In this document: piece after piece, positions 46,130 to 54,809 of the stretch | Position numbering within the stretch: position 1 is the first letter of the stretch | How the letters are laid out: each line of letters starts with the position of its first letter | DNA from: a bacterium | Lineage (GTDB): Bacteria; UBA8248 | Reading direction: 5' to 3' | Assembly: GCA_965213625.1 (NCBI GenBank) | Contig: CBDBZU010000004.1 | Span: 2,624,001-2,688,000, forward strand | DNA length: 64,000 nucleotides | Position numbers and translations under genes: made by a program | The notes under the pieces: generated by a model | What the model was told of the DNA's origin: nothing | The model's input: only the letters and a program-made list of their open reading frames with translations | Database searches by the model: none

Positions 46130-47173
46130 TCAGTCTCTATTGATCACTGCTTCAGCGCTTTGAATCTGCTCGATGATCCACCCGAAATCAGGAATGTCTC
46201 CCAGGATCATGTCCTGCATGGCCCTGTAATCTCTTTCGATCGCCGAGCGCAGTTCCGGTTGCGGCGCCAATCGCACCGAACCGGGGGCGGCCTTATCGAA
46301 CCGTTTCCAGGCCTGCTGAAAAGCGATAAGGTTGTGTTCCCGAACCGCATCCAGAAGAACGATGTTCGTGAGAGCAGACCTTCCGGTTTCGGTCACCGTA
46401 ATCATCGCGGCATCGTAGTAATGACGCGAGATCAAGTCCTTGTCGGTCGGCAAGCGTTTTCCATTTTCGTACCCGTAGCTCAGACCATGCAGGATCAACA
46501 GCTTCTCCCAATAAGTGCGTACCGGCGCGAAGGTTCTGACGCCGCTCACATCGAACGACCATTCAGGCAGAACACTGAAAATGTACGGGCTGACGGAGCA
46601 GGTCAAGTTCGGGTTCAGAGCGGATCTTGCTCCCGCCTCGATCTTCACGCGTGGGGACACGTAGGAAACGTCGCCGCTTGGATACAGGGTGGAATACTCG
46701 ATAAAGAGCGTTTGCCGCCTTTCATCATCCTCGTCCGGCAAGACGCTGCACCCTTCCACCATCTCGTCAATAATACCCATCAGCGACGCTTTCAGATCTC
46801 CCAGAATGTAGTCGCTGCAGGCCCCCGCGAGTTGTTTGAAGAGTGAATTTCGTTTCTTTCTGGATAGGTCTCCTCTGATCGTCGGGTCTCTATCGCCTTC
46901 GAAGCCCAAGCCGTCGCGATGCACCACCAGATCGATGTCCTCGGAGAACCGCTCGATTAGACCGAAGGCTTTGGACAAGGATGTTCCGCCCTTGAAGAGC
47001 AGTTTCGGATGTCCGTCGGGCAATCCGTTGTAGAGCGCATCGAGAACGAAACAGACCCAGAAATCCTTTTCCACGTAGCCGGGCAACGTGCCGAGTCGCT
47101 TCGCCGACGCTTCGAACACATCGCGTTTGTCTTGCTCGGCCAAGGTGAAAAAGGATGCGAATGCTCCCTTCAT
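46130..47173 (-). CDS. abiEii: Type IV TA toxin, AbiEii-family nucleotidyltransferase
   Basis: VEKDFWV, FKGGTSLSK, RFSEDIDL, RTYWEK, SRHYYD. Confidence 0.9.
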   Translation of the reverse strand: MKGAFASFFTLAEQDKRDVFEASAKRLGTLPGYVEKDFWVCFVLDALYNGLPDGHPKLLFKGGTSLSKAFGLIERFSEDIDLVVHRDGLGFEGDRDPTIRGDLSRKKRNSLFKQLAGACSDYILGDLKASLMGIIDEMVEGCSVLPDEDDERRQTLFIEYSTLYPSGDVSYVSPRVKIEAGARSALNPNLTCSVSPYIFSVLPEWSFDVSGVRTFAPVRTYWEKLLILHGLSYGYENGKRLPTDKDLISRHYYDAAMITVTETGRSALTNIVLLDAVREHNLIAFQQAWKRFDKAAPGSVRLAPQPELRSAIERDYRAMQDMILGDIPDFGWIIEQIQSAEAVINRD

Positions 47174-47790
47174 GAAGCGATGGGCTCATCGGTCGTAATG
47201 CTGCGTGCGAGCGGTTGCGCCCAGCCGGGCAAGTCACGACTGTTTTGTGCCAAGTTGTGTTTTACCGCGTCGGGGAGACGACGCTTCAGAATCGAGGCGA
47301 CCCGGGTGTCGGCGGCTCCAGGGCCGAGCCACCGGAGCGCCTGAAAAACCGGGGCCGCCGCCTTTCCCGCCCAGCGCATGACGCTTGGACTCGCATGCCG
47401 GAACTGGAGCGTTCGTCCGTCAATCTTGATTAAACGCGAGGCGCCATCCGTCACATAGCAAGGTCTGGCAGGAACCGCGTTGGTTAGGCCGAGCTGGTTT
47501 GCGGCCGCCATGCCATCAGGCATGACCCGGATGCCGTCTCTTCGTGCAATTGCTGCGATTGCGGAATCCAGATCGACCGGCGCGGGCTGATTCAGCACAC
47601 CGCTCATCCTCGGCTTGTCGTACAAGCCACGACCGACCCGGCGCAGTCGGCCTGCCTTGGCGAGTCGTGACAATGCTTGGTCGATGGCCTCACGGCTTCC
47701 GATATCCAGAAAATCCCTCGGCGTGCACACCCACCTTACGCCAGCGTTTTCAGATATCCTCTCTATGATCTTATCAGCCATGGAACCCAT
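47170..47790 (-). CDS. abiEi: Type IV TA antitoxin, AbiEi-like winged helix (DUF6088-type)
   Basis: DFLDIGSREAIDQALSRL...RRVGRGLY, AANQLGLT; ATGA overlap with the toxin. Start uncertain (47781-47811). Confidence 0.82.
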   Translation of the reverse strand: MGSMADKIIERISENAGVRWVCTPRDFLDIGSREAIDQALSRLAKAGRLRRVGRGLYDKPRMSGVLNQPAPVDLDSAIAAIARRDGIRVMPDGMAAANQLGLTNAVPARPCYVTDGASRLIKIDGRTLQFRHASPSVMRWAGKAAAPVFQALRWLGPGAADTRVASILKRRLPDAVKHNLAQNSRDLPGWAQPLARSITTDEPIAS

Positions 47791-48111
47791 TTGAGTATTC
47801 CTCATCTTCAAATGTCAGAGAATATGCTATGTATATCTGACAAATCAACCCTGTTGTTACAATATCGACAAGTTCGCGGCAAACCTTCCCCTATATCGCC
47901 AGCCCCTTCCTCCACAATTGCCAATCATTCTCCCCTCAGTCGACAGTCCGTCCTGAAAAATTCGGAGCAGATCATCCGAAAAAAGAGGTTGACAGAATGG
48001 GCTGTGAGCGTTTATTCAAAAGGTATGAAGGTTAGGGTTTCTTGAGGTTATCTTGCTGGCGCAACACGAGGCCATGGACGAGTTACAAATTAAGAACGTA
48101 CGTCGAACACA

Positions 48112-48140
48112 TCATCCCCTATCGCCCAATGGGAGGATGA
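48112..48140 (+). promoter_or_regulatory. SD-occluding hairpin in front of the lipid-modification operon
   Basis: UCAUCCCCUAU pairs with AUGGG(A)GGAUGA, 11 bp plus one bulge, covering GGGAGG. Confidence 0.45.
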
Positions 48141-48144
48141 CATC

Positions 48145-48501
48145 ATGCAGTCAACTCATGTAAAGAGCCGCTCCGCAGTTTCCGGCGCCGCCGATATCCT
48201 CCGTGACGTTTTCGGCGATATGGACTACGGGCTCCGCTTCCGCATGTGGGACGGGACTACGGTATCCGTGGGCCGCGAAGTGCTGCCCCTGGAAATCACG
48301 TTCCCCTCGCTCGATTCTTTCAAACACATACTACTGAATCCCACCGCGGATGCCTTCGCGGAGGCGTATTGCGACTCGGTCATCGATTTCGAGGGCGATC
48401 TGTTCGAGGCCATGAAGGTGGCCGACAGTTTCGAGAATATCGAATTGACCACGATGCAGAAATTCAAGTTGGCCCTTCGCATATGGAAACTCTCGGAATG
48501 A
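48145..48501 (+). CDS. Stand-alone N-terminal (lipid-binding) domain of a Cfa-family methyltransferase
   Basis: LRFRMWDG...P..DAFAEAY.D..IDFEGDL..AM resembles Cfa N-domain motifs; own SD; ATGA overlap with the next gene. Confidence 0.72.
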   Translation: MQSTHVKSRSAVSGAADILRDVFGDMDYGLRFRMWDGTTVSVGREVLPLEITFPSLDSFKHILLNPTADAFAEAYCDSVIDFEGDLFEAMKVADSFENIELTTMQKFKLALRIWKLSE

Positions 48502-49610
48502 GCGTACCGGAAGTCATCGTCGTCGGAGGAGGCCCGGGCGGCAGCACGGCCGCTTGGGAGCTGGCGAAGCGCGGCCGCCGCGTTCTCGTGCTCGATGCGG
48601 CCACGTTCCCGCGCGTGAAACTCTGCGCGGGCTGGGTGACGAAGCAGGTGATGGGCGACCTCGGACTCAGGCCCGATGAATACCCCCACACCATCCAGCC
48701 GTTCCAGAGCGTGTTCGTGGGCTATGACGACAAGCTCCTGGAGACGAGGTGGAGCGAACCCGCGAGCTACGGGATCATCAGAAGCCAGTTCGACACCTGG
48801 CTCTTAAGGCGCGCGCAGGAAGAGGGCGCCGAGGTGCGCGAGGGCGTCAGGGTGCGCGGCGTGGAGAAAACTACAGGCGGAATGCGCGTGGACATAGGGA
48901 GCGAGCAAATCGAGGCTCCCGTCATCATCGGCGCGGGGGGGCATACCTGTCCCGTGGCCAGGACGTTCGGCGACGTGTCGTCAAAAGAATCCGTCGTCCT
49001 GACCCAGGAGAGCGAGACGAACGTGGGCGCCGAGAAACTCCGCGACCTTGCGCCCAACTACGGCTTGCCCGAGTTGTTCGCCGAACCCGACTTCAAGGGG
49101 TATGCCTGGTATTTCACAAAAGGGGATTTTTTGAACATCGGCGTTGGCTGCATCGGCAAGAAGCCGAGCGTCCATGAGCGTCTCGATATTCTGCTCGAAA
49201 AATTCCGCGAGACGGGCAGGCTGCCCGCCAGGATGGAACTCACGAAATTCCGGGGCCACGCCTATTCGGTCCACCGCAGGCACGTCCGGCAGCCTGCGGG
49301 CGATGGCTTCGCCCTGATCGGCGACGCCGCGGGCCTGGCGAAAGATTTCAGCGGAGAGGGCATCGGCCCCGCGGTCCATAGTGCTAAAATGGCGGCGGAG
49401 GCCGCGCACAAGTATCTGGATACGGGTGAGGGCATCGCCGAATACGGCGAGGCGCTCTATGAGAAATACGGAAGTGGCGGGGAAGGGTTGTTCGATAAAT
49501 TGATCGATCGTCTTCCGGATAAGGTTCTTTTCGGCGTGGCGAAGTTCATTTGCGGCAACGCTTGGCTCAGACGCCGGCTGGTTCTGGAAGGCGCATTCGG
49601 AATCGGTTGA
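48498..49610 (+). CDS. Geranylgeranyl-reductase-family FAD oxidoreductase
   Basis: VVGGGPGGS, FPRVKLCAG, R..FD..L, GYAWYF.K, IGDAAGL...GEGI. Confidence 0.88.
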   Translation: MSVPEVIVVGGGPGGSTAAWELAKRGRRVLVLDAATFPRVKLCAGWVTKQVMGDLGLRPDEYPHTIQPFQSVFVGYDDKLLETRWSEPASYGIIRSQFDTWLLRRAQEEGAEVREGVRVRGVEKTTGGMRVDIGSEQIEAPVIIGAGGHTCPVARTFGDVSSKESVVLTQESETNVGAEKLRDLAPNYGLPELFAEPDFKGYAWYFTKGDFLNIGVGCIGKKPSVHERLDILLEKFRETGRLPARMELTKFRGHAYSVHRRHVRQPAGDGFALIGDAAGLAKDFSGEGIGPAVHSAKMAAEAAHKYLDTGEGIAEYGEALYEKYGSGGEGLFDKLIDRLPDKVLFGVAKFICGNAWLRRRLVLEGAFGIG

Positions 49611-49629
49611 ACAAAACAGTGAGGCTGCC

Positions 49630-50547
49630 ATGGTAAAAGAGCGAACAAAAGAATTCGACGCCGAGGCGATTTCGCACCACTACGATCTCTCCAACGAGTT
49701 CTACGAGCAGTTCCTGTGCGAGAACATGCTCTATACATGCGCCTATTACCGCGAACCGGACGGCGACCTCGCCCAGGCGCAGCGCGACAAGATGGACCTC
49801 GTCTGCAGGAAGCTCAGGCTCTCGCCCGGCGAGGACTATCTCGACATCGGTTGCGGGTGGGGTTCGCTGGCGATTTGCGCGGCGAAGCACTACGGCGTGA
49901 ACGCCACCGCCGTCACCCTCTCGCGTGAGCAGGCGAAGTGGGGCCAGGAGTGGGCGCGCCGCGAGGGCATCGACGACAAGTGCGAAATCCACCACATGGA
50001 TTACCGCGATTTCCCCGAAGAGAGGACATTCGACAAGATTTCCGCCATCGGCATCATCGAGCACGTCGGCATTGCGAACTACATGAGCTACTTCACTTCG
50101 GTGAGAAAGCGCCTGCGCGACGGCGGCTTGTTCCTCAACCACGGGATCACGACGAACAAATTCTGGAAACCATCGAGCCAGAACGAATTTCTTCTGCGTA
50201 ACGTCTTCCCCAACGGCGAGATGGACAACATTTCCCACATTCAGGACATCATGGAGCTTGCGCGCTGGGAGATTCTGGACGTGGAGAGTCTGAGACTCCA
50301 CTACGCGCGCACGTGCAAGCACTGGTACGAGAAATTCGAGGAAAACGCCGAACGTATCAAGGAACTCGTCGGCGAGCGTACGTACCGGATTTACCGCATC
50401 TGGCTGGTTTGCTCATCGAACGCGTTTTTCAGCAATTCTCTGGGTCTCTATCAGGTGCTGGCGCAGAAATACGAGTTGGAATACCGCTTCGACCCGCCGA
50501 CACACCGCGAGGGTATTTATAAAGCGTTTCTAGATCAGGATGCCTGA
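49630..50547 (+). CDS. cfa: Cfa-family SAM-dependent fatty-acyl methyltransferase, catalytic domain only
   Basis: AISHHYDLSNEFY, YTCAY, LDIGCGWG, TLSREQ, DYRD, IEHVG, NHGIT, FPNG, HYARTC. Confidence 0.88.
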   Translation: MVKERTKEFDAEAISHHYDLSNEFYEQFLCENMLYTCAYYREPDGDLAQAQRDKMDLVCRKLRLSPGEDYLDIGCGWGSLAICAAKHYGVNATAVTLSREQAKWGQEWARREGIDDKCEIHHMDYRDFPEERTFDKISAIGIIEHVGIANYMSYFTSVRKRLRDGGLFLNHGITTNKFWKPSSQNEFLLRNVFPNGEMDNISHIQDIMELARWEILDVESLRLHYARTCKHWYEKFEENAERIKELVGERTYRIYRIWLVCSSNAFFSNSLGLYQVLAQKYELEYRFDPPTHREGIYKAFLDQDA

Positions 50548-50571
50548 GCAGCGCCTTCGCATTCGCCCTGT

Positions 50572-51564
50572 ATGAATGCGCGCGCCGCTTCGCTCACCCC
50601 CCAATTCCGGCCGGCCTGGTATTGTCGGGGGCGTCACCTACAAAGCTCATGGGGATATTTTTTTAGGAAGCGCCCGCGCATCCCCTGGCGTCGCGAGCGT
50701 TGGGATACGCCCGACGGCGATTTCCTGGACATCGATTTCCTCGACGCAGACGATTCGGATGCTCCGACGCTGCTCGTCCTGCACGGCCTGGAAGGTTCTG
50801 CCGATTCCCATTACGTACGAGGTGCTGCGGCCAGGGCGCGCACGCTCGGCTGGCGGACGCTGGCGCTCAACTACCGCTCCTGCAGCGGCGAGCCGAACTT
50901 GAAGCCTAAATTCTACCATTGCGGAGAAACGGGGGATCCGGGCTTCGTGACGGGGCGGATTCTGGAGCGGTTCAGCGGGCCGCTTGTGCTGGCGGGTTTT
51001 TCTCTCGGGGGGAACGTGCTCCTCAAGTGGTTGGGAAAATGTGGCAATGGGGTATCAGCGCGCATTCGCGGGGCCGCCTGCATTTCCCCGAGCGTAAACC
51101 CCGCCGCGTGCGCGAAGGTTCTCGACTCCGTCCCGGGTTATTTCTACAGATGGCACCTGCTGAGCAGCGTGAAGGAAAAAGCGGAGCGTTTCGTGAAACT
51201 GCACCCCGGCCTCATCGACATCGAGGGGGTGCGCCGCGCGCGGACCTTTCACCATTATGACCGCCTCGTCATCGCGCCGCTTTATGGCTTCAGGGATGAG
51301 CTGGATTATTACGAACAAGCCGACGCTTCGCCTTATTTGCCTCGAATTCGAGTGAAGACGCTCATCCTCTCGGCGGAAGACGACCCCATCGTGCCGCCCC
51401 ACGTTTTCCCGCACGACCAGGTGGCGGAATCGGAGTGGCTGAGCGGCGTTTTGGTGAAAAATGGCGGACACGTGGGTTTCGTGGCTGGAGGGAACCCCCG
51501 CGCGCCGCTCTTCTGGGCCGAAGAACAAGCGTTCGAGTTTCTGGACGGTTGTCTGCGAGCGTGA
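50572..51564 (+). CDS. YheT-like alpha/beta hydrolase
   Basis: PDGDFLD, HGLEGS, GFSLGGN, DDP, GGHVGF. Confidence 0.88.
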   Translation: MNARAASLTPQFRPAWYCRGRHLQSSWGYFFRKRPRIPWRRERWDTPDGDFLDIDFLDADDSDAPTLLVLHGLEGSADSHYVRGAAARARTLGWRTLALNYRSCSGEPNLKPKFYHCGETGDPGFVTGRILERFSGPLVLAGFSLGGNVLLKWLGKCGNGVSARIRGAACISPSVNPAACAKVLDSVPGYFYRWHLLSSVKEKAERFVKLHPGLIDIEGVRRARTFHHYDRLVIAPLYGFRDELDYYEQADASPYLPRIRVKTLILSAEDDPIVPPHVFPHDQVAESEWLSGVLVKNGGHVGFVAGGNPRAPLFWAEEQAFEFLDGCLRA

Positions 51565-51843: not shown

Positions 51844-53363
51844 GGGTCTGTTGAAAAACCCGGTGTTGGAAGCGGGCGTTTTGGCGGCTCACGCGGCGGC
51901 GGGGAGGCAGCCCAATCGGCGCGTGAGGGCGCCATGTGCGCGCAGCCGGCGTCTCCGGGCGGCACAGGCCGTCCACAAGGCGAATATACGCGCCGCAAAA
52001 GCGGCGGCCAGCCGCTTGAGGTTCACCGCTATCGCCGTCAGGTAGGACTGGATCCGCATGTTCGCAAGGCCCCGGCGCACCGCCCGCCCCAGTCCGTGCC
52101 GGCTCTTCGCCTCGCCGTGGTAGCCCTCCGAGCGCCAACGGTGGCGGCCATAGAGACGCTTCTCCTCCTCCCCCCAGCGCGCATGCCACCGACGCGCGCG
52201 CAACAGCGCCGGATACGCGTGCGGAATCAACACCGTCCTGCTCGTGCGCGACTTCGACAGACAATCGGGCCTGAGCGCGCAGCCCGCGCAATCCCGCGTC
52301 TTCGATACATAGGAGCGCCCCCGCTCCGTCGCCTGCCGGGGGCGCAGCGTCTTGCCTCCCGGACACTTCACCACCTCGTTGCGCGCGTCGTAGTGGAACA
52401 ACTGCAGCGGAACACGGCTCTGGCTGGGTTCCTTCTTCGCTGGTATCAGCGCTTCCACGCCCCGCCGCTCCAATTCGCCGTAAACCTTCGAGTACGCGTA
52501 CCCCGAATCCGCCGTCACCATCTCCGGCGTGCGGCCCGACAACTCGCTTACCGCCTCTATATGGGACGCCATCATCTCACGCTCGTTCCGCGTCCCCTCC
52601 GTCACCGACACGTCGAGAACAACACCCCGCTCATCGTCCACCGCCGCGTGCTGCTTGTAGCTCGGCTCGAACCCCGCCCGCGCGCTCTTGCGCGCAAGCC
52701 GCGCGTCCGGGTCCGTCCGGCTCACCGGACCCCCGCCACCGCGGCCTCCTCCCTTCTTCCCGACCTCATCATCGACGGGATTCTCCTGAATCACCTTCTC
52801 CGCGTGGTGCGCCGCCAGGCTCTCCCAGCTCACGTCCGCGCGTATCAACGAGGCGTCCACGTGCACCACTTCCCCCTTCGCCACATTCGCCTCCAGGCAA
52901 GCCTGCACCGTGCGACGGAATATCTCCTTGAACCGTGCCTCCCCCCAGCGCTGACGTATCCGCGTCAGGCTCGAATGATGCGGCAACTCCTCGTGCAGCC
53001 CGTACCCGATGAACCACCGGATCGCCAGGTGCGCACGCGCCTCGCGAAGCAGGCGACGGTCGTGAACGTAGCCCAGCAACATACCCGCCAGCATCAAGCG
53101 GAGCGCCACCTCCGGGTCGATCCCCGGACGACCGTTATCCGCGCAATAGCAATCCGCCACCTCCTCCCGTAGCCAGCTCAAATCCAGTACGTGGTCCACG
53201 CGCATCAGGACGTGATCCTCGGGGATCAGCCGTTCCAGCGAACCGGCCACGAACAAATCCATCTGCTCGCGCCTCTTGCTGCCTATCATCGAGGGAACTC
53301 CCATCTCGGGCGAGATAGTGTCATTACACCCAATCACAATGCCGGGGCTTTTTCAACAGCCCC
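51844..53363 (-). mobile_element. IS1182-family insertion sequence, 1520 bp
   Basis: Terminal IRs GGGTCTGTTGAAAAA and TTTTTCAACAGCCCC (14/15); flanking direct repeat CTCAA at 51839-51843 and 53364-53368. Confidence 0.88.
51889..53289 (-). CDS. IS1182-family DDE transposase
   Basis: LIPEDH.L, GRPGIDP, LPHHSSLTRIRQR, VHVDAS, TDPDA, ADSGY, CxxC, R.RSEG..GEAK. Confidence 0.9.
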   Translation of the reverse strand: MIGSKRREQMDLFVAGSLERLIPEDHVLMRVDHVLDLSWLREEVADCYCADNGRPGIDPEVALRLMLAGMLLGYVHDRRLLREARAHLAIRWFIGYGLHEELPHHSSLTRIRQRWGEARFKEIFRRTVQACLEANVAKGEVVHVDASLIRADVSWESLAAHHAEKVIQENPVDDEVGKKGGGRGGGGPVSRTDPDARLARKSARAGFEPSYKQHAAVDDERGVVLDVSVTEGTRNEREMMASHIEAVSELSGRTPEMVTADSGYAYSKVYGELERRGVEALIPAKKEPSQSRVPLQLFHYDARNEVVKCPGGKTLRPRQATERGRSYVSKTRDCAGCALRPDCLSKSRTSRTVLIPHAYPALLRARRWHARWGEEEKRLYGRHRWRSEGYHGEAKSRHGLGRAVRRGLANMRIQSYLTAIAVNLKRLAAAFAARIFALWTACAARRRRLRAHGALTRRLGCLPAAA

Positions 53364-53714: not shown

Positions 53715-54809
53715 TCAGGCGCTTCTGTCGTATTCCCTGAGCCTGAGTTTCTCGTGGCGCGCCATTGCGCAGCCGATGAGCCGATCCAGCATTTCGGGGT
53801 AGGAGACGCCCGCCGCCTGGATCATCCGGGGGTATCCGCTCAACTGCGTGAAGCCGGGCAGGGTGTTTACCTCGTTGATGTAGGTTTCCCCCGTCCGTTC
53901 GCGGTAGAAGAAATCCACGCGGGCGAGTCCCGAACAGCCGAGTGCGCTGAACGCGCCCCGCGCGTAGTGGCGGGCGTGATCGGCGAGGGATTCCTCCACC
54001 GGAGCCGGGATAATCAATTCAGCGCGGCCTTCCTCGTATTTCGCCTCGTAGTCGTACCAGCCCGTATGCGTCGTAATCTCCATGAGCGGACTGGCGAGGA
54101 ATTCTCCGAGTGAAGGGCCTTCGAGTACGGAACACTCCAGTTCGCGTCCCTGCGCGTGCTCTTCTATCAAAACCTTGCTGTCGAAGCGGAAGGCGTCTGC
54201 GACCGCGTCGTGAAGATCGTCAGGACTCTCCACCAGGTGGACGCCGACGCTGCTGCCTGAGGATGAGGGTTTGACGAACAGGGGATACCCTATTTTGGCG
54301 GCGGCTTCTTCAGAAACGGCGTCGCGGTCCGCACCCCAAGTTTCGGGAAACAGCGTGAGCGACGGCAGAACGGGCAGTCCTGCCGCGCGCAGCACCGCCT
54401 TGGCGACGGTCTTGTCCATCGTGACGGCGGAGGAAGCGCACCCCGAACCCACGAAGGGGACTTCCGCCAGTTCGAACAGTCCCTGCAGCGTGCCGTCTTC
54501 CCCGAATGTGCCGTGAATGATGGGGAAGAATACGTCGATATCGAGAGGCTCATCCCTTCCGGCGTACCTGAGCGGCCGCCCGTTCGGCGTGCCCGAGAAG
54601 AGAACCTCTTCGCCGTCATCAGGCGGCGCATCCGGGGCGGGGAGGGCGATCCAGGCGCCCGATTTCGTGATCAGGAGGGGATGGACGTCGTATTTCTCTG
54701 TGTCGAGTTCCGCCATGATGGCCCGGCCCGAGTTCCGGCTCACCTCGTGCTCGGTCGAGCGGCCGCCGAACACGACGCCGACGCTTGTCTTTTGGGACGG
54801 TGACGCCAT
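53715..54809 (-). CDS. ddl: D-alanine--D-alanine ligase
   Basis: FGGRSTEHEVS, HGTFGEDGTLQG, GSSVG, YDYEAKY, NEVNTLPGFT. Confidence 0.96.
   Translation of the reverse strand: MASPSQKTSVGVVFGGRSTEHEVSRNSGRAIMAELDTEKYDVHPLLITKSGAWIALPAPDAPPDDGEEVLFSGTPNGRPLRYAGRDEPLDIDVFFPIIHGTFGEDGTLQGLFELAEVPFVGSGCASSAVTMDKTVAKAVLRAAGLPVLPSLTLFPETWGADRDAVSEEAAAKIGYPLFVKPSSSGSSVGVHLVESPDDLHDAVADAFRFDSKVLIEEHAQGRELECSVLEGPSLGEFLASPLMEITTHTGWYDYEAKYEEGRAELIIPAPVEESLADHARHYARGAFSALGCSGLARVDFFYRERTGETYINEVNTLPGFTQLSGYPRMIQAAGVSYPEMLDRLIGCAMARHEKLRLREYDRSA

Follow-up and report, generated by a model that had tools for sequence, protein, structure and literature searches.

A Cfa-family methyltransferase encoded in two genes around a geranylgeranyl-reductase-family gene: a candidate pathway to methyl-branched lipids

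Gene layout and domain content of the cluster

A 64,000-nucleotide stretch of bacterial DNA (lineage UBA8248; assembly GCA_965213625.1, contig CBDBZU010000004.1, positions 2,624,001 to 2,688,000 of the forward strand), hereafter called the window, carries at 48145-51564 a cluster of four genes in which a lipid methyltransferase of the Cfa family is encoded in two pieces, with a gene for a reductase of the geranylgeranyl reductase (GGR) family lying between them. The features of the cluster, which include enzymes predicted to use flavin adenine dinucleotide (FAD) and S-adenosylmethionine (SAM), are as follows.

47812..48144, + strand: upstream intergenic region, the presumed promoter region; the genes farther upstream lie on the opposite strand
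48145..48501, + strand: g1, 118 residues; free-standing Cfa N-terminal domain (DUF7884, SCP2-like fold), a predicted lipid-binding subunit
48498..49610, + strand: g2, 370 residues; FAD enzyme of the geranylgeranyl reductase family, a TmpA-like putative methylene (C=C) reductase
49630..50547, + strand: g3, 305 residues; catalytic (CMAS) domain of a Cfa-family SAM-dependent lipid methyltransferase, without the N-domain
50572..51564, + strand: g4, 330 residues; YheT-like alpha/beta hydrolase, a fourth, lineage-specific gene

As read from the sequence, g1 starts with ATG, has a GGAGG Shine-Dalgarno sequence 8 nucleotides upstream and ends at its own TGA stop codon. This stop overlaps the start of g2 in an ATGA, while 19 nucleotides separate g2 from g3 and 24 separate g3 from g4. 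The layout given in the original prediction, which was made from the same DNA, was therefore borne out, including the ATGA coupling, the 24-nucleotide spacer and the YheT-like g4. A consensus scan of 47812..48144 detected no sigma-70-like site, and a promoter and terminator scan around the cluster returned nothing exceeding the shuffled expectation.

Searches against Pfam identified PF25371 (DUF7884) as the sole match of g1 (29.9 bits, cut-off 27), and g3 matched PF02353 (CMAS) over profile positions 4-273 of 273 (292.8 bits). On the 393-position CfaB model of NCBIfam, g1 corresponded to positions 5-82 and g3 to positions 97-393, indicating that the pieces together make up one Cfa, with the gap falling at the linker. 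These assignments agree with the earlier claims that g1 consists of the N-domain only and that g3 begins where the catalytic domain begins. None of the NCBIfam Cfa models reached its cut-off with the split pieces, and the best NCBIfam matches were cyclopropane synthase models. In the same database g2 passed TIGR02032 (GG-red-SF; 166.7 bits against a cut-off of 158.8) and scored far under the cut-offs of the ChlP, MenJ and archaeal lipid (digeranylgeranylglycerophospholipid) reductase models. The product of g4 scored 209.4 bits against PRK10985 (YheT), under the cut-off of 267, matched Abhydrolase_1 in Pfam and had no solved relative by sequence comparison; it is possibly a lipid hydrolase.

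The methyltransferase is divided at the interdomain linker

In the window's genome g1 is the single DUF7884 protein and g3 the single strong CMAS match. A profile built from 26 homologues of g1 matched the N-domains of two solved cyclopropane fatty acid (CFA) synthases, 7qos (residues 41-80) and 5z9o (residues 19-79). An AlphaFold2 model of g1 (mean predicted local distance difference test score, pLDDT, 88.6) was compared with known structures using Foldseek, and the best matches were CFA synthase N-domains, followed by SCP2 and UbiJ-SCP2 lipid carriers. The complementary piece, g3, matched residues 110-378 of 7qos (E 1.8e-57), and also 5z9o and 6bqc.

Residue 15 of g3 aligned with position 117 of the E. 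coli Cfa model PRK11705. Residues 100-120 of E. coli Cfa form a disordered linker that tolerates replacement, and its N and C domains co-purify when made as separate polypeptides (PMC9851988). The break between g1 and g3 thus falls inside the equivalent of this linker.

The bicarbonate-site residues listed in the original prediction were present in g3: C37, E144, H145, H171, I173 and Y225 were invariant in 34 aligned homologues, and the same columns were identical in 7qos. These residues correspond to those lining the bicarbonate site of the E. coli and mycobacterial cyclopropane synthases. Methylene-forming BfaB conserves the bicarbonate-site residues as well (PMC7791843), and they therefore do not discriminate between the possible products.

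Gene order is conserved across genomes and metagenomes

Species-representative genomes were scanned with the g1 alignment, yielding 71 loci, 68 of them with at least 34% identity to g1. The genes g1, g2 and g3 were found in the same order and on the same strand in 66 of the 68; the contigs of the other two stop inside g2. The remaining three of the 71 loci encode a fused Cfa, without a reductase in L076 and L078 and followed by a g2-like gene in L077. Carriers of the 68 loci are labelled Nitrospinota or simply "bacterium" among metagenome-assembled genomes (MAGs), with one Tectomicrobia, many Rokubacteria/Methylomirabilota and one Acidoferrum.

A converse search was performed with a catalytic-domain alignment of a third clade of short-form proteins, whose source names include Binatia and Thermodesulfobacteriota, and the best 80 metagenome contigs were analyzed. 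The complete g1-g2-g3 triplet was present in 51 of these, g2 and g3 ran to the contig end in 15, and 8 were too short to judge. One further locus (L164) carries all three genes with a broken g2 match, and the five most distant (g3 42-46% identical) are ordinary fused Cfa genes without a reductase. Within this set of 80, every contig that was long enough and had a g3 at least 49% identical contained the triplet. Among the four contigs nearest the third clade two were long enough (L105 and L107), and both have the full triplet. The order N-domain, reductase, methyltransferase, which the original prediction proposed looking for elsewhere, is found in most genome and metagenome loci. Chance is far from sufficient to explain an arrangement seen in dozens of independent loci.

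Gene spacing differed between lineages. In Nitrospinota-type loci g1 and g2 overlap by 4 nucleotides (25 of 25), and in Rokubacteria-type loci g1 and g2 lie about 1 nucleotide apart and the 4-nucleotide overlap is between g2 and g3 (34 of 36); such spacing implies translational coupling. The gene following g3 also depended on the lineage. The hydrolase gene g4 occupies this position in 23 of 26 Nitrospinota/Tectomicrobia-type loci (three contigs end before it) and in 0 of 42 Rokubacteria-type loci. A fatty-acid desaturase gene (PF00487) directly follows g3 in 24 of the 42 Rokubacteria-type genome loci (L034-L075) and in 24 of the best 80 metagenome loci (L104-L183). This appended desaturase is short (approximately 246 residues, e.g. 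L034:7217-7957); none follows g3 in the window's lineage, and the window's genome has three desaturase matches elsewhere. The position of the desaturase directly after g3 points to acyl chains as the substrate, with the double bond supplied locally. Clustering of the open reading frames flanking the g1-derived genome loci identified no further conserved neighbour family and no isoprenoid gene conserved nearby, and a plasmid collection searched with g2 gave no match.

Several further observations were made on the related loci. The g3/g4 spacer (window 50548-50571; compared over loci L008-L033) measures 7-28 nucleotides in the window and many relatives and 258-599 nucleotides in ten loci of the same genus, including the 97%-identical L008 (491 nucleotides), so that part of the genus has a few hundred bases inserted between g3 and g4. 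In two Rokubacteria MAGs (L036:7433-10390 and L064:7436-10345) the g3 frame extends to 985 and 969 residues, respectively, and the extension in L036 matches an AMP-binding enzyme domain; either these are true fusions to an acyl-activating enzyme or a stop codon was lost in long-read assemblies. A 7.5-kb contig with g1-g3 was found in run X10, labelled as a sponge metagenome, with 138 differences over 2543 bases of window 48005-50547 (approximately 95% identity). Similar g1-g3 copies are present in runs X5 and X6, and close relatives of the cluster therefore occur in several independent data sets. Two short contigs from the RNA-library run X23 lie within g2 and across the g2/g3 junction; DNA carry-over is possible, and they are weak evidence of expression. 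A search for pmoA (PF02461), intended to relate MAGs labelled "Methylomirabil*" to methanotrophic Methylomirabilis, for which 10-methyl palmitate is known, gave 0 matches in five genomes, the control being likewise silent everywhere.

Both pieces of the methyltransferase are maintained

Homologues of g1 are free-standing proteins of 93-127 residues, distributed over 33 protein clusters down to 39% identity, and their alignment contains 20 invariant columns. Relatives of g3 were similarly uniform, with 117 of the best 120 having 295-316 residues and the others 216, 273 and 383. The ratio of nonsynonymous to synonymous substitution (dN/dS; Nei-Gojobori method, window versus eight loci of the same genus) was 0.14-0.31 for g1, 0.08-0.14 for g2 and 0.05-0.10 for g3, indicating that all three genes are under purifying selection.

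Among 51 species genomes of the window's phylum, g1 was detected in 40 and g3 in 41, all of them in one family (f1); the exceptions within this family were a 67% complete genome with g3 and without g1, and one genome lacking both. Neither gene was detected in any of the 9 genomes from the three other families of the phylum. No relative among the 51 genomes has a close fused homologue, and no longer (fused) proteins sharing words with g1 were found, by a method that provides weak evidence. Taken together, the free-standing g1 homologues, dN/dS values below 1 throughout (0.05-0.31) and the co-occurrence of g1 and g3 within the family uphold the original view that the split reflects fission and not decay, and in none of the relatives examined was a close fused Cfa lacking a linked reductase encountered.

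Damaged copies were observed at two loci. In L029 (L029:6348-7460) a TAG codon replaces the invariant Tyr256 of g2, and in L073 the reading frames of both g2 and g3 are fragmented. These cases reflect either inactivation of individual copies or errors of assembly. Selenocysteine was considered for in-frame stops of g2 in L029 and L030 and was rejected, the former being the TAG at Tyr256 and the latter a protein that ends 7 residues early.

A reductase subgroup associated with Cfa genes

The best solved relative of g2 was an archaeal digeranylgeranylglycerophospholipid reductase, 3oz2 (E 1.2e-14). C43 and Y202/W204 of g2 align with the Cys near the flavin and with the Y-I-W-V-F-P-K-G stretch of this enzyme. 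In an alignment of 35 homologues the residues of the GxGxxG FAD motif (G10, G12 and G15) were invariant, as were P38-R39, K41, C43-A44-G45-W46, G145-G148, C151-P152-V153 and Y202/W204.

To sample the subgroup outside the split loci, 401 Planctomycetota genomes were searched with the g2 alignment. All seven strong matches (E <= 2.5e-118) adjoin a gene encoding a fused N-domain and CMAS protein, six in the order Cfa then reductase and one in divergent orientation, and the two weaker GGR matches have no Cfa neighbour. The g2 subgroup thus adjoins Cfa-like genes in all loci examined, whether from the genome scan, the Planctomycetota or the metagenomes.

Quick maximum-likelihood trees were computed with support from the Shimodaira-Hasegawa-like approximate likelihood ratio test (SH-aLRT) only and with a midpoint root. 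In the g2 tree, 19 of the 66 loci, 8 loci from Planctomycetota and 11 of 150 representatives joined the window to make 39 rows (L098, being near-identical to L096, was left out); the g3 tree had 37 rows. In the g2 tree the Cfa-linked reductases formed a clade (support 100), with the split-type members together (95) and the fused-type members from Planctomycetota together (99). In the g3 tree the short catalytic domains grouped at 87, separate from the fused reductase-linked ones (100). These topologies fit a single origin of the split layout and its later spread, and do not fix the order of change.

Function of the cluster and alternative explanations

A Cfa-like methyltransferase coupled to a GGR-like protein has a described precedent. 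The tmpBA ("ten methyl palmitate") operon occurs in Desulfobacter, Desulfobacula, Marinobacter and Thiohalospira, and was reported in the producers of 10-methyl palmitate (10Me16:0) in Table S2 and to be absent from the non-producers listed there (PMC7791843). According to the same source TmpB is Cfa-like and forms 10-methylene fatty acids in an E. coli cfa mutant, and TmpA is similar to anaerobic archaeal geranylgeranyl reductases, as the original prediction had proposed (PMC7791843). The most probable account of the cluster is that g1-g2-g3 is an operon whose products modify unsaturated acyl chains of membrane lipids in two steps, a split and interleaved variant of the TmpB/TmpA type that makes mid-chain methyl-branched (10-methyl) fatty acids.

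According to this model the SCP2-like lipid-binding N-domain (g1) and the SAM-dependent catalytic domain (g3) would be made as two polypeptides and would assemble non-covalently into the methyltransferase, as separately expressed halves of E. coli Cfa do. Acting on a cis double bond, the assembled enzyme would transfer the methyl carbon of SAM and produce a methylene (or allylic methyl) intermediate, whose C=C bond the TmpA-like flavoprotein g2 would then reduce to leave a saturated mid-chain methyl branch (10-methyl-16:0-like). A methyl branch is favoured over a cyclopropane ring because the reductase is obligatory. Whereas gene structure, family assignments, conservation, linkage and selection were observed, we infer that g1 assembles with g3, that the substrate is a fatty acyl chain, that a methylene intermediate forms and is reduced, and where the branch lies.

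Several points weigh against this account. The catalytic piece g3 keeps every bicarbonate-site residue of true cyclopropane synthases and is thus compatible with cyclopropanation. TmpA was inactive in E. coli and yeast (PMC7791843), and no activity of TmpA is known to have been demonstrated. Moreover, g3 is 35-41% identical to the reductase-linked fused Cfa proteins of Planctomycetota versus 42% to the reductase-free fused protein of L076. Since it is no closer to the former, the link to TmpB is one of architecture and not of demonstrated orthology, and the printed TmpA sequence was compared by eye, at the level of motifs only. Finally, the carriers are all uncultured MAGs or metagenome contigs, known from sequence alone.

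The alternative that survives best, which we nevertheless consider unlikely, is that g1 and g3 constitute an ordinary cyclopropane synthase in two pieces and that g2 is a co-regulated lipid reductase acting on another substrate (another double bond or an isoprenoid). The invariant C37, E144, H145, H171, I173 and Y225, shared with solved CFA synthases, are consistent with this idea, as is the finding that cyclopropane synthase models are the best NCBIfam matches. However, the same residues are kept by methylene-making BfaB (PMC7791843), and a cyclopropane product offers no C=C bond to a GGR-type enzyme. Furthermore, the reductase lies between the halves in every judgeable member of the short-form clade, it is translationally coupled to g1 or g3, and its subgroup is linked to Cfa in Planctomycetota too.

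It is distinctly improbable that g2 acts on the methylated chain in some other way (as an isomerase, a hydratase-like enzyme or a dehydrogenase), so that a different modified lipid would result, for example a methyl-alkenyl acid or a more oxidised one, by analogy with the furan route initiated by UfaM. The furan fatty acid pathway relies on a DUF1365 protein and on a flavoprotein from another family, g2 scores above the GGR cut-off and retains the Cys and flavin motifs found in C=C reductases, and no further family is conserved among the reading frames flanking the g1-derived genome loci. In favour of such chemistry, the desaturase found directly after g3 in many loci could act after methylation and not before it, and TmpA is not known to have a demonstrated activity (PMC7791843).

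An isoprenoid or quinone side chain in place of a fatty acyl chain, as the name of the GGR family suggests, is very unlikely to be the substrate. The MenJ, ChlP and archaeal lipid reductase models do match g2, but with scores far under their cut-offs; the solved and named relatives of g3 all act on acyl chains, and the linked gene in many loci is a fatty-acid desaturase, with no isoprenoid gene conserved nearby. Lastly, the idea that a decaying cfa gene was broken by insertion of the reductase, leaving g1 as a non-functional remnant, could draw on the scattered damage in relatives (L029 and L073), but it is contradicted by the conservation and selection data and effectively refuted: g1 is equipped with a Shine-Dalgarno sequence, a start and a stop of its own, its length is stable across 33 clusters reaching as low as 39% identity, it shows 20 invariant columns and a dN/dS of 0.14-0.31, and it is retained in at least three deep lineages.

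Within the preferred model of a split TmpB/TmpA-type operon, the original prediction of a free lipid-binding subunit serving both enzymes can be entertained tentatively, and we rate it as rather unlikely. Here g1 would be a shared lipid-presenting subunit that extracts or holds the acyl chain and docks with g3 and g2, in turn or at once, and the reactive methylene intermediate would be passed on within the complex, in a manner that would resemble UbiJ-SCP2 serving the ubiquinone enzymes. A three-chain structure prediction of g1 and g3 with g2 as the scored partner, run with no controls, gave a score of 0.00, which weighs neither for nor against a trimer. If g1 were shared in this way, the order N-domain, reductase, catalytic domain with its 4-nucleotide overlaps would reflect co-translational assembly, and this would suggest why TmpA alone is inactive in heterologous hosts.

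Neighbouring DNA

Directly upstream of the cluster, on the minus strand (46130-47811), lies a gene for an AbiEii nucleotidyltransferase toxin (PF08843) with an overlapping DUF6088 gene, which probably encodes an AbiEi-like antitoxin. The content of guanine and cytosine (GC) in this segment is 0.535-0.566, compared with approximately 0.60-0.64 nearby, and the segment is likely an inserted toxin-antitoxin module.

Downstream, a DDE transposase gene (DUF772 and DDE_Tnp_1; 51889-53337, minus strand) is located between g4 and a D-Ala-D-Ala ligase gene (53715-54809). This block has a GC content of 0.674 and a GC skew of -0.228. In 20 related loci a minus-strand open reading frame of 364 residues, the same length as the D-Ala-D-Ala ligase, was observed downstream of g4, and the insertion sequence at 51889-53337 therefore looks like a recent insertion.

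Significance

What was engineered in E. coli Cfa, a separation of its two domains, exists in this cluster in a natural and conserved form. The N-domain can evidently evolve into a subunit of its own, and the cluster offers a clean system for asking what the Cfa N-domain does. The cluster probably also widens the little-studied TmpA-type branch of the GGR family with enzymes from oxygen-exposed lineages, whose reconstitution may prove easier.

Mid-chain methyl-branched acids such as 10Me16:0 serve as phospholipid fatty acid markers for sulfate reducers (PMC6487957). If the proposed pathway is correct, the 10-methyl-16:0-type biomarker acids now ascribed to sulfate reducers and actinomycetes would also come, unrecognised, from Nitrospinota-like bacteria and from the abundant Rokubacteria-type bacteria of soil, and the marker assignments would need to be revisited. 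Saturated mid-chain branched acids are also wanted as lubricant feedstocks (PMC7791843), for which a functioning reductase partner for TmpB-type enzymes is the missing piece.

Comparison with known systems

A literature search that covered sources outside subscription journals found no description of a split Cfa operon, of this layout or of DUF7884, and only the tmpBA operon (PMC7791843) came close. As in TmpB/TmpA, a Cfa-family methyltransferase is genetically coupled to a GGR-like flavoprotein, and the supplementary text on TmpA, inspected by eye only, shows the g2 motifs F-P-R-x-K-x-C-A-G-W, G-A-G-G-x-x-C-P-V, G-H-x-Y and G-D-A-A-G (PMC7791843). The TmpB/TmpA layout of a fused Cfa gene followed by the reductase gene is that of six of the seven Planctomycetota loci, the seventh being divergent. 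In contrast, the methyltransferase described here is split at the linker, with the order N-domain, reductase, catalytic domain in place of a fused B followed by A, and a YheT-like hydrolase (in the window's lineage) or a desaturase (in the Rokubacteria type) is appended. In the quick trees, reductases and catalytic domains of the split type are separated from their fused-type counterparts.

The BfaB/BfaA system, which makes 10-methylstearate in actinomycetes (PMC7791843 and PMC5660069), follows the same logic of methylenation by a Cfa-like enzyme and subsequent flavin-dependent reduction. However, BfaA comes from another flavoprotein family and has no meaningful homology to TmpA (PMC7791843). 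BfaB is a fused protein whose gene follows that of BfaA, unlike the arrangement in the cluster. The protein g2 resembles the archaeal geranylgeranyl reductases (3oz2 and 3atq/4opc) in fold family and FAD motif, and has in common with them the aligned Cys and the aromatic Y-x-W-x-F motif; its match to 3oz2 is nevertheless weak, and its genomic partner is a fatty-acid methyltransferase and not a gene of isoprenoid lipid synthesis.

Finally, the cluster shares with E. coli Cfa a two-domain plan, comprising a lipid-binding N-domain and a CMAS catalytic domain. The natural break between g1 and g3 coincides with the disordered linker (100-120) of the E. coli enzyme, whose engineered halves remain associated, which provides a possible mechanism for g1 and g3. 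The differences are that the split here is natural and conserved, that a reductase is embedded in it and that the product is probably not a cyclopropane. Compared with phospholipid-type Cfa enzymes in general, the N-domain has become a separate gene 1.1 kb upstream of the catalytic domain, with g2 in between.

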